Positions 3,209 to 34,063 of a stretch of DNA of 64,000 nt are shown here, piece after piece. Each line of letters opens with the position of its first letter. The first letter of the stretch is position 1. A program made the translations under genes and the position numbers. Source of the DNA: Escherichia coli (lineage in GTDB: Bacteria > Pseudomonadota > Gammaproteobacteria > Enterobacterales > Enterobacteriaceae); NCBI RefSeq assembly GCF_001677475.2, contig NZ_CP015229.1; one strand, written 5' to 3'. The notes below the pieces were generated by a model, which was not told the origin of the DNA, ran no database searches, and saw only the letters and a program-made list of their open reading frames with translations.

Positions 3209-4183
3209 ATGACAAAATTACAACTTAAGTACCGGGAGTTAAAAATTATCTCGGTAATCGCTGCCAGTGAAAATATCAGCCATGCCGCGACTGTACTTGG
3301 CATCGCACAGGCCAACGTCAGCAAATATCTTGCTGATTTTGAATCAAAAGTAGGTTTAAAAGTCTTTGACCGAACCACCCGGCAACTGATGCTCACACCT
3401 TTTGGTACCGCGCTGTTGCCATACATCAATGACATGCTGGACAGAAACGAGCAGCTTAATAATTTTATTGCAGATTATAAGCATGAGAAACGTGGTCGGG
3501 TCACTATCTATGCACCAACCGGCATAATTACCTATTTATCCAAACATGTAATCGATAAAATTAAAGATATCGGTGATATCACCTTATCGCTAAAAACCTG
3601 CAATCTTGAGCGTAATGCCTTTTATGAAGGCGTCGAATTTCCCGATGATTGTGATGTTTTAATCAGCTACGCTCCACCAAAAGATGAATCGCTGGTTGCC
3701 AGTTTTATTACGCAATATGTCGTAACCGCTTATGCCAGCCAGCGCTATCTTGAGAAACATCACATTAGCCGTCCTGACGAACTCGAACATCACTCCTGTA
3801 TTTTGATCGACTCAATGATGATCGACGACGCGAATATCTGGCGCTTCAACGTCTCCGGGAGTAAAGAGGTGCGGGATTATCGTGTGAAGGGAAATTACGT
3901 TTGCGACAACACGCAATCGGCGCTGGAGCTGGCACGAAATCACCTGGGGATTGTGTTTGCGCCAGACAAAAGTGTGCAGAGCGATCTGCAAGACGGCACG
4001 CTGGTGCCCTGCTTTCAGCACCCGTATGAATGGTGGCTGGATCTGGTGGCTATCTTCCGTAAACGGGAATACCAGCCCTGGCGGGTCCAGTATGTGCTGG
4101 ATGAAATGCTGCGTGAAATTCGCCACCAGCTTGCTCAGTCGCAGCAACTGCGGCCTGAACAAGCGGCGGAAAGCGAAGATTAA
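3209..4183 (+). CDS. yiaU: LysR-family transcriptional regulator YiaU
   Basis: 324-aa ORF with N-terminal HTH (…[38 protein letters not shown]…); divergent from yiaT, ATG at 3209. Confidence 0.85.
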
Positions 4184-11077: not shown

Positions 11078-12465
11078 TTCAACAACATCTCCAAAAACCG
11101 TTGCTCATCTTCAAGGCAGCGTAAATCCAGCCACAATCGTCCGTCATAAATACGACCAATCACCGGCACTGGCAATTCACGCCAGCGGGCGGCTAATGAC
11201 TCAAGGTGGCTACCGCGTCCATCATGGGGTGTAAACGTTAATGCCGCGCTCGGCAGGCGATCAACCGGCAGCGAACCACTGCCAATCTGCGAAAGACATG
11301 GCATAACCTGGACTGCAAACTCCGCGCCGTAATGTGCGGCAAGGGGAGCCTGTAAACGTTGTGCCTGGATTTGAATGACCTCTGCGCTGCGGGTAAGCAG
11401 GCGCAGGGTCGGTAATTTTTCACTCAGCGCCTCAGGGTGTAAATAAAGACGCAGCGTGGCTTCCAGCGCCGCGAGGGTCATTTTATCCGCGCGTAATGCA
11501 CGCTTCAGTGGATGGCTTTGCAGGCGGGCGATCATCTCTTTTTTACCAACGATAATCCCTGCCTGCGGCCCGCCTAACAACTTGTCGCCGGAGAAGCTCA
11601 CCAGGCTGACGCCCGCCGCAATCAACTCCTGCGGCATCGGCTCTTTCGGCAAACCGTACTGGCTAAGATCGACCAGCGAACCACTGCCTAAATCAGTCAC
11701 TACGGGAACATCCAGTTCTTTGCCAAGCGCCACCAGTTCAGCTTCATCTATCGCTTTGGTGAACCCCTGAATGCTGTAGTTACTGGTATGTACTTTCATC
11801 AACAGTGCGGTATTTTCATTCACCGCCTGACGATAATCATTCGCGTGCGTGCGGTTGGTGGTCCCCACTTCGTGCAGGGTACAGCCAGCCTGACGCATGA
11901 CGTCAGGGATACGAAACGCGCCGCCGATCTCCACCAGTTCGCCACGAGACACCACCACCTCTTTACCGCTGGCAGTGGCCGCCAACATCAATAACACCGC
12001 CGCCGCATTGTTATTAACGATACAGGCATCTTCCGCCCCCGTAATACGGCACAGCAGCTGCGCCAGCGCACGATCGCGATGTCCGCGTCCGGCGTCGTCC
12101 AGATCGTACTCCAGCGTCACCGGCGAACGCATAGCCTGCGCAACGGCTTCCACCGCGGCTTCTGCCTGTAAAGCTCGCCCAAGATTGGTATGCAGCACGG
12201 TTCCCGTCAGGTTGATCACCGGACGCAGCGCGCTCTGCGCTTCTTTCGTCAACCGGGCATCGACTTCTTGCGCCCAGTTCTCACACCACGCGGGCAGCGT
12301 CTGGCTGTCACGAATCACTTCTCGCGCTTCGTCAAGCATCTGACGCAGCAATTCCACCACGCGGGTGTGACCATAAGTATCACGCAAAGAAAGGAAGGAG
12401 CTATCGCGCAATAAGCGATCAATAGCCGGAAGTTGACTATAGAGGGAACGCGTTTCGGTTGTCAT
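11074..12465 (-). CDS. selA: L-seryl-tRNA(Sec) selenium transferase SelA
   Basis: 463-aa ORF recognised as SelA ([19 protein letters not shown]…), PLP-dependent fold. Confidence 0.95.
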
Positions 12466-12562
12466 AGGAAACCTGGCTAATCAAGGCTCTCTCACACGGA
12501 GAAGGGCGTTTAACATAACCACGGATTGTAACGTGAGATGGGTCAGGAGGACATATCGCGCA

Positions 12563-13171
12563 TCAAGCCTTTGGCGGTTCGGTGCGAGCAAAACTTTCGC
12601 GGCTAAACAGGTTTTCGACCAGTTTGACTAAGTGTGGGCGGTCGACACACCAGCCTGGCGCAACGCGGCGGAAATTGAGATATCCGACGGCACAGGCAAT
12701 GGCGATAGTCGCCAGATTGACCGTATCGGTTTTGAGTGTGCCATCGACCAGATATCCTTCCAGCACATCCAGACTGCGGTTGATTTTCTCCCGCTGGCGT
12801 AACAATTCATCTTCAGACTGCTGCGCCGCCGGACGCGCCTGTTCGCGCACCGACACCAGCCCGGCATCCATAATACCGTCGGCCAGCGCCTCAATTTTAC
12901 GCACTCGCAACGACTCCAGCGGATCGCGCGGCAACATCGCCGGAGCGACATTCATTAATTCAATATATTCGGCAATGATCGGCGAATCAAACCAACATTC
13001 GCCCTCTTCGGTCACCAGCACCGGCACTTTCCCTAACGGGTTAAATTGCGCCACGCCGTTGTCCGCGTTATAGGGCAGCTCATTAATAAATTCGAAAGTT
13101 ATGCCCTTTTCTAACAACAGAATAGAAAGTTTGCGTACAAACGGGCTGGTGTAGCTACCGACGAGTTTCAT
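12563..13171 (-). CDS. yibF: Glutathione S-transferase-like protein YibF
   Basis: 202-aa ORF with GST N-terminal thioredoxin-like fold ([24 protein letters not shown]…). Confidence 0.85.
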
Positions 13172-13241
13172 GCCGAGTCCTTTGTGCGAGGAAAAATATC
13201 AGTATGGCTCAGGCTCGCGCAAAACACAGGTGACATAAGTC

Positions 13242-14378
13242 TCAATGATCCAAATAAAGATAATGCATCCAACTGGTCATTCTCAGCAGCACCTTCCGCA
13301 TCACCGAAACATGGCTGAAATGGTCGGAGTAAACTGCTACCTGGGCGTAAATGCCGTCGGGTAAGGCATCGATATCATCGTTGGGGTCCAGTTCAATGGT
13401 TCCCAGCACACCGTCCGTGCCGGGCACGACCGTTAATGATTGCAATACCCCCTGCGCCTGATAAGAACCGCCTGGCACGACAGGTAAAATACTGGTCAGT
13501 TTGCCGTGGAACACCTGCCCAGGTAGCGCGTTAAACACCACTTCCGCATCATCGCCGGGTTTCAGACGTAACAGCGAGTTCTGCCGAAATTGGGCGACAA
13601 TTTGCCGTTTTTGCTCGGGGATGAAAACCATCACCGGACGTAGCGGCAAGGCAGCTGCGTATGTACCTGGGCGGATCAGTACCTGAGTAACGTAGCCATT
13701 GCTTGGTGCGCGAATGACAGTCTGCTCAAGGTTATATTTTGCTTCAGTAAGTTGCGCTCTTAAGCTCACAATCTGCGACTGCTCGCCGTTAACCATACTG
13801 TCGAGCTGGCTCTGGATCTGCGCCTGCTCCGCCACCGAGCCTTTCACCAGCGCGTCCTGCGCGAGGAAGTTTTGCCGCGCATCGTCGATGTCACGTTCCG
13901 AGAACGGATTCACCGCCGCCTGGCTACCTTTCAGGTAACGTTGATAATTTTTAAACAGACGGTCGCGCTCCGCTGAAACCTGGGTGGTGTTGGCCTGCGC
14001 TTCAGTGAGCTGGGCGCGCAGCGTCTTTATATTATGCGTCGCCGTCATCAGGTCAGCCTGAAGTCTGTCAACTCGCGCCTGGTAACGAACCGGGTCGAGT
14101 TTAAAAAGCACCTCGCCCTTTTGAATAAGCTGATTATTCTTGTCAGTGACTTCAGTAACAATTCCCGTCACCTGTGGCGTGATGGGGATCGCTATCACTG
14201 CCTTTTGCGCGGTAAAAGTGTAAGGATGGTTGTAGTTCATCAATAAAATCAAACCACTCACCAGAAATACGCCTCCCAACGCCGCCGTCGCCAGCGTCCA
14301 CTGATTCACCGGAATGCGGAAGATTTTAAATACTGCCCATGCCAGCGCCACGTAAGTTAAAACAATTAACAGATCCAT
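13242..14378 (-). CDS. yibH: HlyD-family periplasmic adaptor protein YibH (paralog of YiaV)
   Basis: 378 aa; co-linear with YiaV over its full length with identical C-terminus (…[33 protein letters not shown]). Confidence 0.85.
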
Positions 14379-14380
14379 AA

Positions 14381-14743
14381 TCAGATCTCCGGGAACGTGG
14401 AATAGTCACTCTTTTTTTCAGCTGCAAGTTGGTGCTCCAGCCGGGAAATACGGTCAGAAAGTGCGGCGATTTCCGGGTCAGTCACTTTCTCCTGCGACGC
14501 AACATGTGACTGCATGCCCCAGCCGCGCTCCGGTTGATAGAGCGTCGCCCAGATCCACAGAAACGGCCAGATAACATGCAGAGTAAACAGGCTAACCCAG
14601 CCCGCCGTATGAATAGCGTCGGCATGGGGATGGTTGCGCTTTTTGGCAATCAAATAAGGGATGTCATGTATCGCGATGATTCCATAAAAAATCACCAGAA
14701 AGACGAAGATCAGCACTCCCAACGCGAAGTAGTTTAGAAACAT
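14381..14743 (-). CDS. yibI: Small inner-membrane protein YibI (paralog of YiaW, DUF3302-like)
   Basis: 120 aa, [23 protein letters not shown]…; ATG at 14743 preceded by GAGG; stop 3 nt before the yibH start. Confidence 0.8.
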
Positions 14744-14959
14744 ATCTGCCTCGGATTCACGCTTATCAGTGTTGTTTTTTGGCTGGCAGCCGGAAGGGAG
14801 TCAGGCTGATACTTTGACATTAATCTGCGTTTGCCAATCTCGCCATCACACCGAAGGATAATTTTAAAAGGCGATGAGTTGCTCAGTTACAAAACTGTCT
14901 TAAGGCAAAGTCAGAACATGTTGCAGATCACATCAGGTGAATTACCGAAGAAAATATCT

Positions 14960-15136
14960 TGTGATTCAGATCACAAAAATCTAACAAACCATCAAAACAA
15001 AAATGTGACATTACTCACATTTAAATGCCATTTTTAGCGAAAATCGCCGCCTTGTTGCTTTTTTACACAAGCGTTTTGTGATGAACGTCACGCCAATTAC
15101 CTCTCTACCCCCTATATTTATGTGACTGATATCACA
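14960..15136 (+). promoter_or_regulatory. mtl operon control region with four CRP-consensus sites
   Basis: TGTGA-N6-TCACA matches at 14960-14975 (tgtgattcagatcaca), 15004-15019 (tgtgacattactcaca), 15077-15092 (tgtgatgaacgtcacg), 15121-15136 (tgtgactgatatcaca), all upstream of mtlA ATG 15280. Confidence 0.6.
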
Positions 15137-15279
15137 CAAAAGACCGTCGACTGGACAGTTAACCGATTCAGTGCCAGATTTCGCAGTATCTACAAGGTCC
15201 GGCTACCTCTGCCGCCACATTAACAAAAAACCTCGGGCTTCCAGCCTGCGCGACAGCAAACATAAGAAGGGGTGTTTTT

Positions 15280-17193
15280 ATGTCATCCGATATTAAGATC
15301 AAAGTGCAAAGCTTTGGTCGTTTCCTCAGCAACATGGTGATGCCAAATATCGGCGCGTTTATCGCGTGGGGTATCATCACCGCGTTATTTATTCCAACAG
15401 GGTGGTTACCGAACGAAACGCTGGCGAAGCTGGTCGGGCCGATGATCACTTATCTCCTGCCGCTGCTGATCGGTTATACCGGTGGTAAGCTGGTAGGCGG
15501 CGAACGTGGCGGCGTAGTCGGTGCCATTACCACCATGGGCGTTATCGTCGGCGCAGACATGCCGATGTTCCTCGGTTCTATGATTGCAGGTCCGCTGGGC
15601 GGCTGGTGCATTAAGCACTTCGACCGCTGGGTAGACGGTAAGATCAAATCCGGTTTTGAGATGCTGGTGAATAACTTCTCCGCAGGCATCATCGGGATGA
15701 TCCTCGCTATTCTGGCATTCCTCGGCATTGGCCCGATTGTTGAAGCCCTGTCCAAAATGCTGGCTGCGGGCGTTAACTTCATGGTTGTCCATGACATGCT
15801 GCCGCTGGCGTCTATCTTTGTTGAACCGGCGAAAATCCTGTTCCTCAACAACGCCATTAACCACGGTATCTTCTCGCCGCTGGGCATTCAGCAGTCCCAT
15901 GAACTGGGTAAATCCATCTTCTTCCTGATTGAAGCTAACCCAGGTCCAGGTATGGGCGTGCTGCTGGCGTACATGTTCTTTGGTCGTGGCAGTGCTAAAC
16001 AATCTGCGGGCGGTGCGGCAATCATCCACTTCCTGGGTGGTATCCACGAAATCTACTTCCCGTATGTGCTGATGAATCCGCGTCTGATTCTGGCCGTTAT
16101 TCTCGGCGGTATGACTGGCGTGTTCACGCTAACTATCCTGGGCGGTGGTCTGGTTTCTCCGGCATCTCCAGGTTCTATCCTTGCGGTACTGGCGATGACA
16201 CCAAAAGGTGCTTATTTCGCTAACATCGCGGGTGTGTGTGCGGCGATGGCTGTCTCCTTCGTTGTCTCTGCTATTTTGCTGAAAACCAGCAAAGTGAAAG
16301 AAGAAGATGATATTGAAGCAGCAACTCGTCGTATGCAGGACATGAAAGCTGAGTCTAAAGGTGCGTCTCCGCTGTCTGCGGGCGATGTGACTAACGACCT
16401 GAGCCACGTACGTAAAATCATCGTTGCCTGTGACGCCGGTATGGGTTCCAGTGCAATGGGCGCAGGCGTGCTGCGTAAGAAAATTCAGGATGCAGGTCTG
16501 TCGCAGATTTCGGTCACTAACAGCGCGATCAACAACCTGCCGCCAGATGTGGACCTGGTCATCACTCACCGTGACCTGACCGAACGCGCTATGCGCCAGG
16601 TTCCGCAGGCACAGCATATTTCGCTGACCAACTTCCTCGACAGCGGCTTGTACACCAGCCTGACCGAACGTCTGGTTGCTGCCCAGCGCCATACTGAAAA
16701 CGAAGTAAAAGTGAAAGACAGTCTGAAAGACAGCTTTGACGATTCCAGTGCTAACCTGTTCAAGCTAGGCGCGGAGAACATCTTCCTCGGTCGCAAAGCG
16801 GCCACCAAAGAAGAAGCGATTCGTTTTGCTGGCGAGCAACTGGTGAAAGGCGGTTACGTTGAGCCGGAATATGTTCAGGCGATGCTGGATCGTGAAAAAC
16901 TGACCCCGACTTATCTGGGTGAGTCTATCGCGGTGCCACACGGTACGGTTGAAGCGAAAGATCGCGTACTCAAAACGGGCGTCGTGTTCTGCCAGTACCC
17001 GGAAGGCGTACGCTTCGGTGAAGAAGAAGATGACATTGCCCGTCTGGTGATTGGTATTGCTGCCCGTAACAACGAGCACATTCAGGTTATAACCAGCCTG
17101 ACCAATGCACTGGATGATGAGACTGTCATCGAGCGTCTGGCACACACCACCAGCGTGGATGAAGTGCTGGAACTGCTGGCAGGTCGTAAGTAA
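15280..17193 (+). CDS. mtlA: PTS mannitol-specific EIICBA component
   Basis: 637-aa ORF; membrane EIIC domain followed by EIIB and EIIA domains. Confidence 0.95.
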   Translation: MSSDIKIKVQSFGRFLSNMVMPNIGAFIAWGIITALFIPTGWLPNETLAKLVGPMITYLLPLLIGYTGGKLVGGERGGVVGAITTMGVIVGADMPMFLGSMIAGPLGGWCIKHFDRWVDGKIKSGFEMLVNNFSAGIIGMILAILAFLGIGPIVEALSKMLAAGVNFMVVHDMLPLASIFVEPAKILFLNNAINHGIFSPLGIQQSHELGKSIFFLIEANPGPGMGVLLAYMFFGRGSAKQSAGGAAIIHFLGGIHEIYFPYVLMNPRLILAVILGGMTGVFTLTILGGGLVSPASPGSILAVLAMTPKGAYFANIAGVCAAMAVSFVVSAILLKTSKVKEEDDIEAATRRMQDMKAESKGASPLSAGDVTNDLSHVRKIIVACDAGMGSSAMGAGVLRKKIQDAGLSQISVTNSAINNLPPDVDLVITHRDLTERAMRQVPQAQHISLTNFLDSGLYTSLTERLVAAQRHTENEVKVKDSLKDSFDDSSANLFKLGAENIFLGRKAATKEEAIRFAGEQLVKGGYVEPEYVQAMLDREKLTPTYLGESIAVPHGTVEAKDRVLKTGVVFCQYPEGVRFGEEEDDIARLVIGIAARNNEHIQVITSLTNALDDETVIERLAHTTSVDEVLELLAGRK

Positions 17194-17199
17194 TCCAAT

Positions 17200-17385
<186 letters not shown>

Positions 17386-17421
17386 CCCTCTCGGGTAAAA
17401 ACATTGATGAAGGTTAATACT

Positions 17422-18570
17422 ATGAAAGCATTACATTTTGGCGCAGGTAATATCGGTCGTGGCTTTATCGGTAAACTGCTGGCAGACGCGGGTATCCAAC
17501 TGACGTTTGCCGATGTCAATCAGGTGGTACTTGATGCCCTGAATGCCCGTCATAGCTATCAGGTTCATGTGGTCGGTGAAACCGAGCAGGTAGATACCGT
17601 TTCCGGCGTCAATGCCGTCAGCAGCATTGGTGATGATGTCGTTGATCTGATTGCTCAGGTTGATTTAGTCACTACCGCCGTTGGTCCGGTTGTGCTGGAA
17701 CGTATTGCCCCGGCAATCGCCAAAGGGCTGGTGAAACGTAAAGAACAAGGTAATGAATCCCCGCTGAACATCATCGCTTGTGAAAACATGGTCCGCGGCA
17801 CCACACAGCTGAAAGGCCATGTGATGAACGCCCTGCCGGAAGATGCCAAAGCGTGGGTAGAAGAACACGTTGGCTTTGTTGATTCCGCCGTTGACCGCAT
17901 CGTGCCGCCTTCGGCTTCTGCAACCAACGATCCGCTGGAAGTGACGGTAGAAACATTCAGCGAATGGATTGTCGATAAAACTCAGTTCAAAGGCACGCTG
18001 CCAAACATTCCTGGTATGGAGTTAACCGACAACCTGATGGCGTTTGTCGAACGTAAACTCTTCACCCTGAACACGGGTCATGCTATAACCGCGTACCTCG
18101 GAAAACTGGCCGGTCATCAGACCATTCGTGACGCTATTCTCGACGAGAAAATCCGCGCGGTGGTTAAAGGTGCGATGGAAGAAAGTGGTGCAGTATTGAT
18201 CAAGCGCTACGGCTTTGACGCTGACAAGCATGCGGCGTACATCCAGAAAATCCTCGGCCGTTTCGAGAACCCGTATCTGAAAGATGATGTAGAGCGCGTA
18301 GGCCGTCAGCCGCTGCGTAAACTGAGTGCTGGCGACCGTCTGATCAAGCCACTGCTGGGTACGCTGGAATACGGCCTTCCGCACAAGAATCTGATTCAGG
18401 GGATTGCTGGTGCAATGCACTTCCGCAGTGAAGATGATCCGCAGGCTCAGGAGCTGGCAGCACTGATCGCTGACAAAGGCCCGCAGGCGGCGCTGGCACA
18501 GATTTCCGGTCTTGATGCCAACAGCGAGGTTGTATCCGAGGCGGTAACCGCTTATAAAGCAATGCAATAA
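17422..18570 (+). CDS. mtlD: Mannitol-1-phosphate 5-dehydrogenase
   Basis: Track ORF starts at 17239 inside the REP region; conserved start is ATG 17422 ([17 protein letters not shown]… NAD-binding motif), 382 aa. Confidence 0.95.
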
Positions 18571-19157
18571 TGGTGGACCAGGCGCAGGACACCCTGCGCC
18601 CGAATAACAGATTGTCAGATATGCAGGCAACAATGGAACAAACCCAGGCCTTTGAAAACCGTGTGCTTGAGCGTCTGAATGCTGGCAAAACCGTGCGAAG
18701 CTTTCTGATCACCGCCGTCGAGCTTTTGACCGAGGCGGTAAATCTTCTGGTGCTTCAGGTATTCCGCAAAGACGATTACGCGGTGAAGTATGCTGTAGAA
18801 CCGTTACTCGACGGCGACGGTCCGCTGGGCGATCTTTCTGTGCGTTTAAAACTCATTTACGGGTTGGGTGTCATTAACCGCCAGGAATACGAAGATGCGG
18901 AGCTACTGATGGCATTGCGTGAAGAGCTAAATCACGACGGCAACGAGTACGCGTTTACCGATGATGAAATCCTTGGACCCTTTGGTGAACTGCATTGCGT
19001 GGCGGCGTTACCACCGCCGCCACAGTTTGAACTTGCAGACGCCAGTTTGTATGCAATGCAAATTCAGCGTTACCAACAGGCTGTGCGATCAACAATGGTC
19101 CTTTCACTGACAGAGCTGATTTCCAAAATCAGCTTAAAAAAAGCCTTTCAAAAGTAA
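18570..19157 (+). CDS. mtlR: Mannitol operon repressor
   Basis: 195-aa ORF; ATG overlaps the mtlD TAA (taATGg). Confidence 0.9.
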   Translation: MVDQAQDTLRPNNRLSDMQATMEQTQAFENRVLERLNAGKTVRSFLITAVELLTEAVNLLVLQVFRKDDYAVKYAVEPLLDGDGPLGDLSVRLKLIYGLGVINRQEYEDAELLMALREELNHDGNEYAFTDDEILGPFGELHCVAALPPPPQFELADASLYAMQIQRYQQAVRSTMVLSLTELISKISLKKAFQK

Positions 19158-19167
19158 GTACTTTCGC

Positions 19168-19377
19168 TTACTTCTCCTCTACCTGTTTCGGCCGATAAAG
19201 CCGACGATAATACTCCAGACGTTGTAGATATAACGGCACGCTTTCATCAGGTATTCCGGACGGAATCGCGTTACGGGGAGGTAGTTTTTTCAGATACTCC
19301 CGGAACGCCTGGCTGGATGCCATGAAATCTACGGCTTTATCGATAAGAAGCGGAACGTTTTCACCTAATTTGCCCAT
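19168..19377 (-). CDS. yibT: Small protein YibT
   Basis: 69-aa ORF ([39 protein letters not shown]…) convergent with mtlR. Confidence 0.75.
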
Positions 19378-19660
19378 GATGATATCTCCGAATTACCCCG
19401 CGCCGGGAATGCGCGGCCGCCAATTTTAGTTTAGATCCCGGTATAAATGACATTAAGGAAAACGTGCTCAATCCTCAATAATCATCCGCTTCTGTTAATT
19501 ATCTTTTTTCTATAAATTTCTTAGTTAATCAACAAATTGCGTGCTTTTTAAGCAAGTTAATGATTACGTTATAGAACTATTGCAATGTCATCAGTTGTGA
19601 ACAAAGCACCTGGTCGCGCATACTAGGGGCTATAAATTTATCTTTATCAGAAGTCATCAC

Positions 19661-20023
19661 ATGAAAGAAGTCGAAAAAAACGAAATCAAACGTCTCAGCG
19701 ATCGTCTGGACGCCATCCGTCACCAGCAGGCCGATCTGTCGCTGGTTGAAGCCGCAGACAAATATGCCGAACTGGAAAAAGAGAAAGCTACGCTGGAAGC
19801 TGAAATTGCCCGCCTGCGTGAAGTTCATAGCCAGAAACTCAGCAAAGAAGCACAAAAGCTGATGAAGATGCCGTTCCAGCGTGCGATTACCAAAAAAGAA
19901 CAAGCCGATATGGGTAAGCTGAAGAAGAGTGTCCGTGGGTTAGTCGTAGTGCATCCGATGACCGCACTGGGTCGTGAAATGGGTCTGCAAGAGATGACCG
20001 GGTTCTCAAAGACAGCGTTTTAA
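19661..20023 (+). CDS. yibL: DUF2810-family protein YibL
   Basis: 120-aa ORF ([42 protein letters not shown]…). Confidence 0.85.
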
Positions 20024-20048
20024 CCCTCTTACCTGTATATCTCCCTCA

Positions 20049-20074
20049 CATCCCGCGTTTCTAAATGCGGGATG
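20049..20074 (+). terminator. Candidate stem-loop downstream of yibL
   Basis: Perfect 8-bp stem catcccgc/gcgggatg with a 10-nt loop, 26 nt after the yibL stop; T-rich stretch follows only after ~20 nt. Confidence 0.35.
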
Positions 20075-20513
20075 CAACAAATATCCTCCTCTTTTTCCTC
20101 TGTTACCTCGTAGAGTCTACTTTTTACCAATGGCACTAAATCTGAAAATGCATTCAGTAAAAGGTTTGGTTCGACGCCTAAAAATGGAAGATATCATTCA
20201 TAAAATAAAACTTTTGCCGTTATTTTTTCCATCTACATTCTAAAAACTCACCCAAAACATTTATTGTGTGAATATTAAATGAAAGCTATTTTTCTGCTTT
20301 AAATGCAGTGTTTGACATCTGATAACCCTCCTCATTAAAATCCGCCTCCCTAACACAATTAAACAATTTTAAAACTTAATAAATAATTTTCATAACAAAT
20401 ATATTCGCAACATTCATAAAGCCAGCCGTATAAATCGCAAAAGCATCAACCACAAATGGACACATCCCTTAGACCGCGTTGGTATCAGGGATGATATGTA
20501 AGGATAACTTTAT

Positions 20514-33821: not shown

Positions 33822-34063
33822 GGGGGGTAACAACTCCCGACGTAGTGATTAAAAACCAGGGAAGGAGTATACCTGCGCGTTGCGGCAAATACAGCCAGCG
33901 CGTGCACCGGAATGCAATTTTGCGGCACGCTACGAAAAAAAATCGCAAATCTGGCATCGGCTTGCCGCGAGCGGTCGTATATTTTGATCTTCAGAGGCTA
34001 TTTTATCGATTCAGCTGTAGTAAAATTACGCAAATTTTGACTCTTGAGTATGAGGTTGTCGCA

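Follow-up and report, generated by a model that had tools for sequence, protein, structure and literature searches.

The 64,000-nucleotide stretch of Escherichia coli DNA analysed here (hereafter "the window") carries the mannitol operon, and our interest lies in the spacer that separates the first gene of this operon, mtlA, from the divergent gene yibI. The features framing this spacer are as follows.

yibI, positions 14381–14743, minus strand: DUF3302 protein.
yibI/mtlA intergenic region, positions 14744–15279: 536 bp, the whole spacer between both genes.
mtlA, positions 15280–17193, plus strand: PTS mannitol transporter IICBA, 637 aa (NCBIfam NF011663, 1323 bits).
mtlD, positions 17422–18570, plus strand: mannitol-1-phosphate 5-dehydrogenase, 382 aa (NCBIfam NF002648, 878 bits).
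mtlR, positions 18570–19157, plus strand: mannitol operon repressor, 195 aa, NCBIfam-confirmed.

The gene order mtlA-mtlD-mtlR directly 3′ of the spacer and its CRP-site array is established by NCBIfam matches to all three proteins and agrees with how the matching E. coli locus is annotated. The encoded MtlR is identical to its K-12 counterpart at 193 of 195 residues, with both CRP-contact residues, R167 and L178, kept; it matches Pfam PF05068 alone and has no DNA-binding domain, and its nearest solved structure is 6kcr. The crp gene itself is absent from the 64-kb window. Further into the operon, the mtlA-mtlD spacer (17194–17421) harbors REP-type repeats (at ~17235 and at 17320–17332 on the minus strand) as well as two similar hairpins built on CTCTCCACATGGAGA (~17207–17224 and 17341–17357). 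For a 5.9-kb query that includes this spacer, the number of places hit per E. coli genome has a median of 21.

Within the yibI/mtlA spacer we find five CRP sites, numbered here from the yibI side. Coordinates are those of the 22-mers, scores are those of the CRP matrix described below, and positions relative to the transcription start are carried over from E. coli.

CRP1, 14914–14935 (core 14917–14932, CATGTTGCAGATCACA): degenerate, 7 of 10 consensus positions, as in K-12; 6.05 bits, rank 76.
CRP2, 14957–14978, TCTTGTGATTCAGATCACAAAA: half-sites perfect; centre 14967.5, presumed −219.5; 14.2 bits, rank 5.
CRP3, 15001–15022, AAATGTGACATTACTCACATTT: half-sites perfect; centre 15011.5, presumed −175.5; 19.0 bits, rank 1.
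CRP4, 15074–15095, TTTTGTGATGAACGTCACGCCA: 9 of 10 consensus positions; centre 15084.5, presumed −102.5; 15.0 bits, rank 4.
CRP5, 15118–15139, TTATGTGACTGATATCACACAA: promoter-proximal, half-sites perfect; centre 15128.5, presumed −58.5; 18.3 bits, rank 2.

An exact search of all 64,000 bases for TGTGA-N6-TCACA (TGTGANNNNNNTCACA) returned three perfect matches (14960–14975, 15004–15019, and 15121–15136), all of them in this spacer, where chance would provide 0.07 per 64 kb and none of 100 shuffled sequences reached three. The sole one-mismatch site of the window, TGTGATGAACGTCACG (9/10 consensus), sits among them at 15077–15092. Together, the four sites occupy 177 bp (14960–15136), which bears out the initial annotation in its count of four sites, three of them perfect, within 180 bp. 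Scoring relied on a symmetrised 22-bp matrix derived from 21 classical non-mtl sites, including those of lac, gal, ara, malT, deoP2, tnaA, and cya; these follow the Stormo/Lawrence data set, and the matrix and its scores are approximate, while the exact-pattern results are independent of the matrix. Among 63,979 scanned positions, CRP2 to CRP5 take ranks 5, 1, 4, and 2, and at 14.2–19.0 bits none of them drops below threshold in the matrix scan that the initial annotation had proposed as a check. Its description of the density as unusually high likewise stands: five sites of at least 14 bits were observed where 200 dinucleotide shuffles of the window led us to expect 0.64, and in no shuffle did a 200-bp stretch contain three or more sites scoring 12 bits or higher. 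The third-best match of the window (3746–3767, TATCTTGAGAAACATCACATTA, 15.4 bits) falls inside the 324-aa open reading frame of a LysR-type regulator (3209–4183) and may be an intragenic CRP site or a chance occurrence.

Centre to centre, CRP2 to CRP5 are 44, 73, and 44 bp apart, and the CRP2/3 and CRP4/5 pairs, both of 44 bp, are the only two in the 64 kb whose sites score at least 8 bits and lie 43–46 bp from one another. This geometry proved informative when the region was set beside that of K-12. Of 5,426 complete E. coli genomes, 5,404 contain a match to the 536 bp, at ~92% identity and nearly always in the 90–95% band, and for the surrounding 5.9 kb the best E. coli match reaches 97.5%, with a K-12-like locus at 96%. 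Alignment to a K-12-like genome is free of gaps and contains 41 substitutions, 34 of which fall in the 204 bp closest to yibI; the remaining 332 bp, which begin at 14948 and run up to the mtlA start codon, have only seven. None of these substitutions touches a TGTGA or TCACA pentamer; four of the seven lie within the 22-mers, all at non-consensus positions, and from 15144 to 15279 the two sequences are 100% identical. The yibI-proximal 204 bp (14744–14947) are thus only 83% identical to the K-12-like genome, whereas the flanking yibI, yibH, and mtlA and the remainder of the spacer reach 96–98%, which marks these 204 bp as a locally divergent or recombined patch.

The mtl control region of E. 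coli reportedly had its five CRP sites mapped by Ramseier and Saier in 1995. Their positions, designated CRP1 to CRP5, are −262.5, −219.5, −175.5, −102.5, and −58.5, that is, with spacings of 43, 44, 73, and 44 bp (PMC13421365). The 44/73/44 arrangement seen here equals the published spacing of CRP2 to CRP5, and given the gap-free alignment, the four sites are their orthologues. The same two pieces of evidence—alignment and published spacing—also locate a degenerate CRP1, centred at 14924.5 and 43 bp upstream of CRP2, which the initial annotation had missed. The K-12 mtlADR control region and the present one share their flanking genes, site positions, 43/44/73/44 spacing, promoter, and Cra box; they differ in that CRP1 is weaker here (6.05 versus 11.1 bits) and CRP2 slightly stronger (14.2 versus 12.0 bits). 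In other words, the region is the orthologue of the known five-site E. coli mtlADR control region, and as such it is already known, textbook-grade, and no new biology.

What is the purpose of so many sites? In E. coli, CRP is an essential activator of mtl transcription (Lee et al., NAR 2026; PMC13421365), and in a Genomic-SELEX screen for CRP only one clone was more abundant than the yibI/mtlA spacer (PMC3105977). CRP1 is poorly occupied and dispensable, CRP2, CRP4, and CRP5 are essential, and a mutation in CRP2 abolishes both mtlD expression and growth on mannitol (PMC13421365). As for the repressor, a study from 2017 pointed out that MtlR is devoid of any motif for DNA binding and that its operator had yet to be demonstrated, and proposed a DNA-binding partner; no interaction between MtlR and CRP was observed in the absence of DNA (PMC5320558). 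More recently, the same laboratory found that MtlR alone does not bind mtl DNA, in keeping with its lack of a DNA-binding domain, whereas it supershifts only those complexes in which two CRP sites 43–46 bp apart (centre to centre, with an optimum of 44–45 bp) are occupied; a CRP3-CRP4 probe is not bound (PMC13421365). The exchanges R167E and L178A abolish binding or supershift together with repression. Dephosphorylated EII(Mtl) draws MtlR off to the membrane, and CRP binding and MtlR supershift were demonstrated on both E. coli and S. enterica DNA (PMC13421365). Support for docking comes mostly from this single study of 2026 (PMC13421365) and an AlphaFold3 model.

To see how far the array extends, species-representative genomes were scanned with MtlA, which yielded 80 loci, and four-site arrays were sought with free spacings of 40–48, 50–99, and 40–48 bp, requiring at least 7 bits of the weakest site. 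A four-site array was recovered at 47 of the 59 gammaproteobacterial loci, while shuffled controls attained at most 3.7 bits. The spacings of these 47 arrays are distributed as follows.

CRP2-CRP3 gap: 44 bp in 44 arrays, 45 bp in 3.
CRP3-CRP4 gap: 73 bp in 43 arrays, 72 bp in 2, 74 bp in 1, 63 bp in 1.
CRP4-CRP5 gap: 44 bp in 43 arrays, 43 bp in 4.

The CRP3-CRP4 distance is thereby as fixed as the two 44-bp gaps across Enterobacterales, Aeromonadales, and Vibrionales, with exceptions in Edwardsiella (63 bp), Providencia vermicola and Budvicia diplopodorum (72 bp), and Tolumonas (74 bp). By comparison, CRP5 lies anywhere between 118.5 and 190.5 bp away from the mtlA ATG in the 47 arrays, so insertions and deletions are tolerated just outside the array. 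A pair with 43–46 bp spacing was present at 54 of 56 loci with mtlR, at 3 of 22 without a detectable mtlR (two of the three being truncated contigs), and in none of 79 control stretches inside mtlA; phylogeny is a confounder of this association of pair and mtlR, most of the loci with neither being from Firmicutes. Across 22 genera, mean conservation amounts to 1.1–1.3 bits per column in the four 22-mers; the spacers average less, namely 0.71 bits between CRP2 and CRP3, 0.61 in the 73-bp gap between CRP3 and CRP4, and 0.44 between CRP4 and CRP5. The pentamers of CRP2 are invariant.

Downstream of the array, the spacer contains two further elements.

Weak core promoter, positions 15152–15180, plus strand: −35 TGGACA (15152–15157), 17-bp spacer, −10 CAGATT (15175–15180).
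Cra (FruR) box, positions 15159–15172, minus strand: ACTGAATCGGTTAA, between −35 and −10.

The columns of the −35 and −10 hexamers are conserved in Enterobacteriaceae. Transcription probably starts near 15187, as projected through the gap-free alignment from the E. coli start, where S1 mapping puts CRP5 at −58.5. A promoter scan found no consensus sigma-70 promoter on the plus strand, and its one minus-strand match (15286–15259) is at chance level; the result on the plus strand fits an activator-dependent promoter and was not counted against the promoter proposed here. If the E. coli start holds for this genome, CRP5 is centred at −58.5, where a class I site would be expected near −61.5, upstream of a weak −35; the mtl promoter has been classed as class III (PMC13421365).

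Concerning the Cra box, its sequence is an exact match to the Cra/FruR consensus, RSTGAAWCSNTHHW. The window has three exact matches to this consensus versus 0.56 expected, the other two being located at 13901–13914 and 34002–34015. Cra is named as a repressor of mtl (PMC13421365). A scan of positions 12000–20500 against Rfam revealed no RNA family; the leader accordingly carries neither a known riboswitch nor a known sRNA. In mtlA leaders elsewhere (loci L037, L038, L040, L043, and L046), a palindromic element of the type GTTATTTGGCGATAACG or GGTTTTGGCGAACC occurs ~50–90 bp 5′ of the ATG; Providencia, Photorhabdus, Edwardsiella, Vibrio, and Photobacterium have it in common, but it is absent from the leader of the window.

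We consider it very likely that these features amount to an E. coli-type control region, with CRP2 to CRP5 activating transcription and, in their 44-bp pairs, docking MtlR, and with a degenerate CRP1 and a weak promoter. This genome itself shows that the sites exist, how strong and how conserved they are, and how they are spaced, and that MtlR is intact; that CRP binds and activates, that MtlR docks, and that transcription starts at the homologous position would follow by analogy with the E. coli experiments. According to this scheme, cAMP-CRP on the sites would serve as the obligatory activator of the weak promoter, while the CRP2/3 and CRP4/5 pairs would offer a docking platform for the MtlR dimer, which is predicted to bridge adjacent CRP dimers and block their contact with RNA polymerase. 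When mannitol is present, dephosphorylated EII(Mtl) would draw MtlR to the membrane and the operon would be induced.

With two 44-bp pairs, and with MtlR docking on CRP pairs, the array itself would be the operator. This bears on two statements of the initial annotation. Its view that the operon is under cAMP-CRP control agrees with the five mapped E. coli sites, the essentiality of CRP, and the SELEX data; the density, which it called consistent with strong catabolite control, would reflect a geometric requirement and not merely such control. The concern that the array leaves limited room for a separate MtlR operator falls away, as a repressor that lacks a DNA-binding domain and sits on CRP pairs 43–46 bp apart needs none.

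How does this arrangement compare with other repressors and arrays that involve CRP? CytR belongs to the LacI family, and its operator sits between two CRP sites ~52–53 bp apart. At deoP2 and related promoters, it resembles MtlR in that the repressor contacts two tandem DNA-bound CRP dimers and blocks activation (comparison made in PMC13421365), but CytR is itself a DNA-binding repressor (PMC13421365). The mtl pairs are 44 bp apart, MtlR is without a DNA-binding domain, and CRP4-CRP5 are without a conserved operator between them, so the mtl array is not of the CytR type. A closer likeness in layout is the malEp-malKp region, another dense tandem CRP array in a divergent spacer with a class III promoter (PMC5320558, PMC13421365); there, however, CRP2 and CRP3 are 34 bp apart, and MtlR binds only after this distance has been lengthened to 44 bp (PMC13421365). 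The mtlA promoter of Vibrio cholerae, with five verified CRP sites, shares the multi-site array and pairs of 43–44 bp, and in our array search several Vibrio and Photobacterium loci displayed a 44/73/43 array, some sites of which were weak. V. cholerae differs in that an antisense sRNA, MtlS, lies over the mtlA 5′ UTR, and in that the EII(Mtl) sequestration step is missing (PMC13421365).

Between and beside the CRP sites, the comparison of 22 genera of Enterobacterales revealed three short elements that are conserved almost like the half-sites, amid columns otherwise saturated with changes.

E1, positions 14951–14956, AAAATA: just 5′ of CRP2; 1.0–2.0 bits per column, neighbours below 0.5.
E2, positions 14983–14988, AACAAA: in the CRP2-CRP3 spacer, its centre 18 bp 3′ of the CRP2 centre.
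E3, positions 15053–15067, TGT-N9-ACA with a T6 tract, TGTTGCTTTTTTACA: within the 73-bp CRP3-CRP4 spacer.

In E2, A14984 and A14986–14988 are invariant in all 22 genera, and the motif is kept in Providencia and Edwardsiella, too. E3 carries 1.0–1.7 bits at 15053–15055, 15059–15061, 15063–15064, and 15066–15067, and less at 15062 and 15065. Several identities were considered and rejected: by eye, no Fis core (G-N13-C with an A/T-rich centre) overlies E1 or E2, and an IHF consensus does not fit; E1 read as a minus-strand −10 (TATTTT) lacks a suitably spaced −35; and E3 is not a sixth CRP site, since its TGT and ACA triplets are separated by 9 bp where 10 would be expected, and it is not picked up by the matrix.

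Elements of this kind raise the question of whether MtlR, or a DNA-binding partner such as the one proposed in 2017 (PMC5320558), might after all recognise a specific operator in this region, leaving the CRP sites to activation only. The conservation of E1, E2, and E3 at about the level of CRP half-sites would be in line with this. Nevertheless, MtlR alone does not shift mtl DNA, and spacer sequence is irrelevant to it: stretching the malK region from 34 to 44 bp turns it into an MtlR target, i.e., 44 bp of arbitrary sequence between two CRP sites suffice (PMC13421365). Moreover, the R167E and L178A variants, which no longer give a supershift, also fail to repress (PMC13421365). In our own comparison, the CRP4-CRP5 spacer, which supports MtlR binding, is barely conserved (0.44 bits per column) and has no conserved patch, as fits a repressor without an operator sequence. 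A classical operator is accordingly very improbable in our estimation.

We regard as still less probable that CRP1 to CRP3 mainly serve the divergent yibI-yibH genes instead of mtlA. The sites do occupy a divergent intergenic region, and at spacers of this type CRP is noted to act frequently on both promoters (Shimada et al., PMC3105977). Yet an upstream yibIH is confined to the group of Escherichia, Citrobacter, and Enterobacter, and the 44/73/44 arrangement persists in its absence in Serratia, Pantoea, Yersinia, Pectobacterium, Hafnia, Budvicia, and others, from which we infer that the array belongs to mtlADR. The 204 bp next to yibI are also the least conserved part of the region, and the loss of mtlD expression and mannitol growth upon CRP2 mutation in E. 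coli (PMC13421365) again argues for a function toward mtl. Finally, a chance cluster of functionless palindrome-like sequences is refuted by three perfect sites against 0.07 expected, by the lack of any comparable shuffle, and by half-sites invariant in 22 genera.

The E. coli-type region with its MtlR-docking pairs is thus our preferred reading, but the fixed 73 bp and E1 to E3 fall outside what the docking model explains. These features could reflect a DNA loop or wrap, another factor, or contact with the alpha-CTD of RNA polymerase. It is conceivable, if on balance doubtful, that the four-site array behaves as a single nucleoprotein unit, rigid and in helical phase, rather than simply as two independent platforms for MtlR. 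Pointing in this direction, the 73-bp distance is fixed although MtlR does not bridge it, and the one large exception, of 63 bp, is shorter by one helical turn. For the role of the far-upstream CRP sites in activation, phase-dependent looping or anti-silencing has been suggested (PMC13421365).

For some 30 years, the place at which MtlR binds was an open question, and the answer given in 2026 is a repressor without an operator that reads the spacing of CRP dimers. The present locus is a useful case for calibration. To this known picture, the strong constraint on the 73-bp gap and on E1 to E3 represents one modest addition, which bears on activation by CRP from far upstream. If true, a phased unit would explain why CRP sites as far out as −219.5 are essential for the activation of the mannitol operon.
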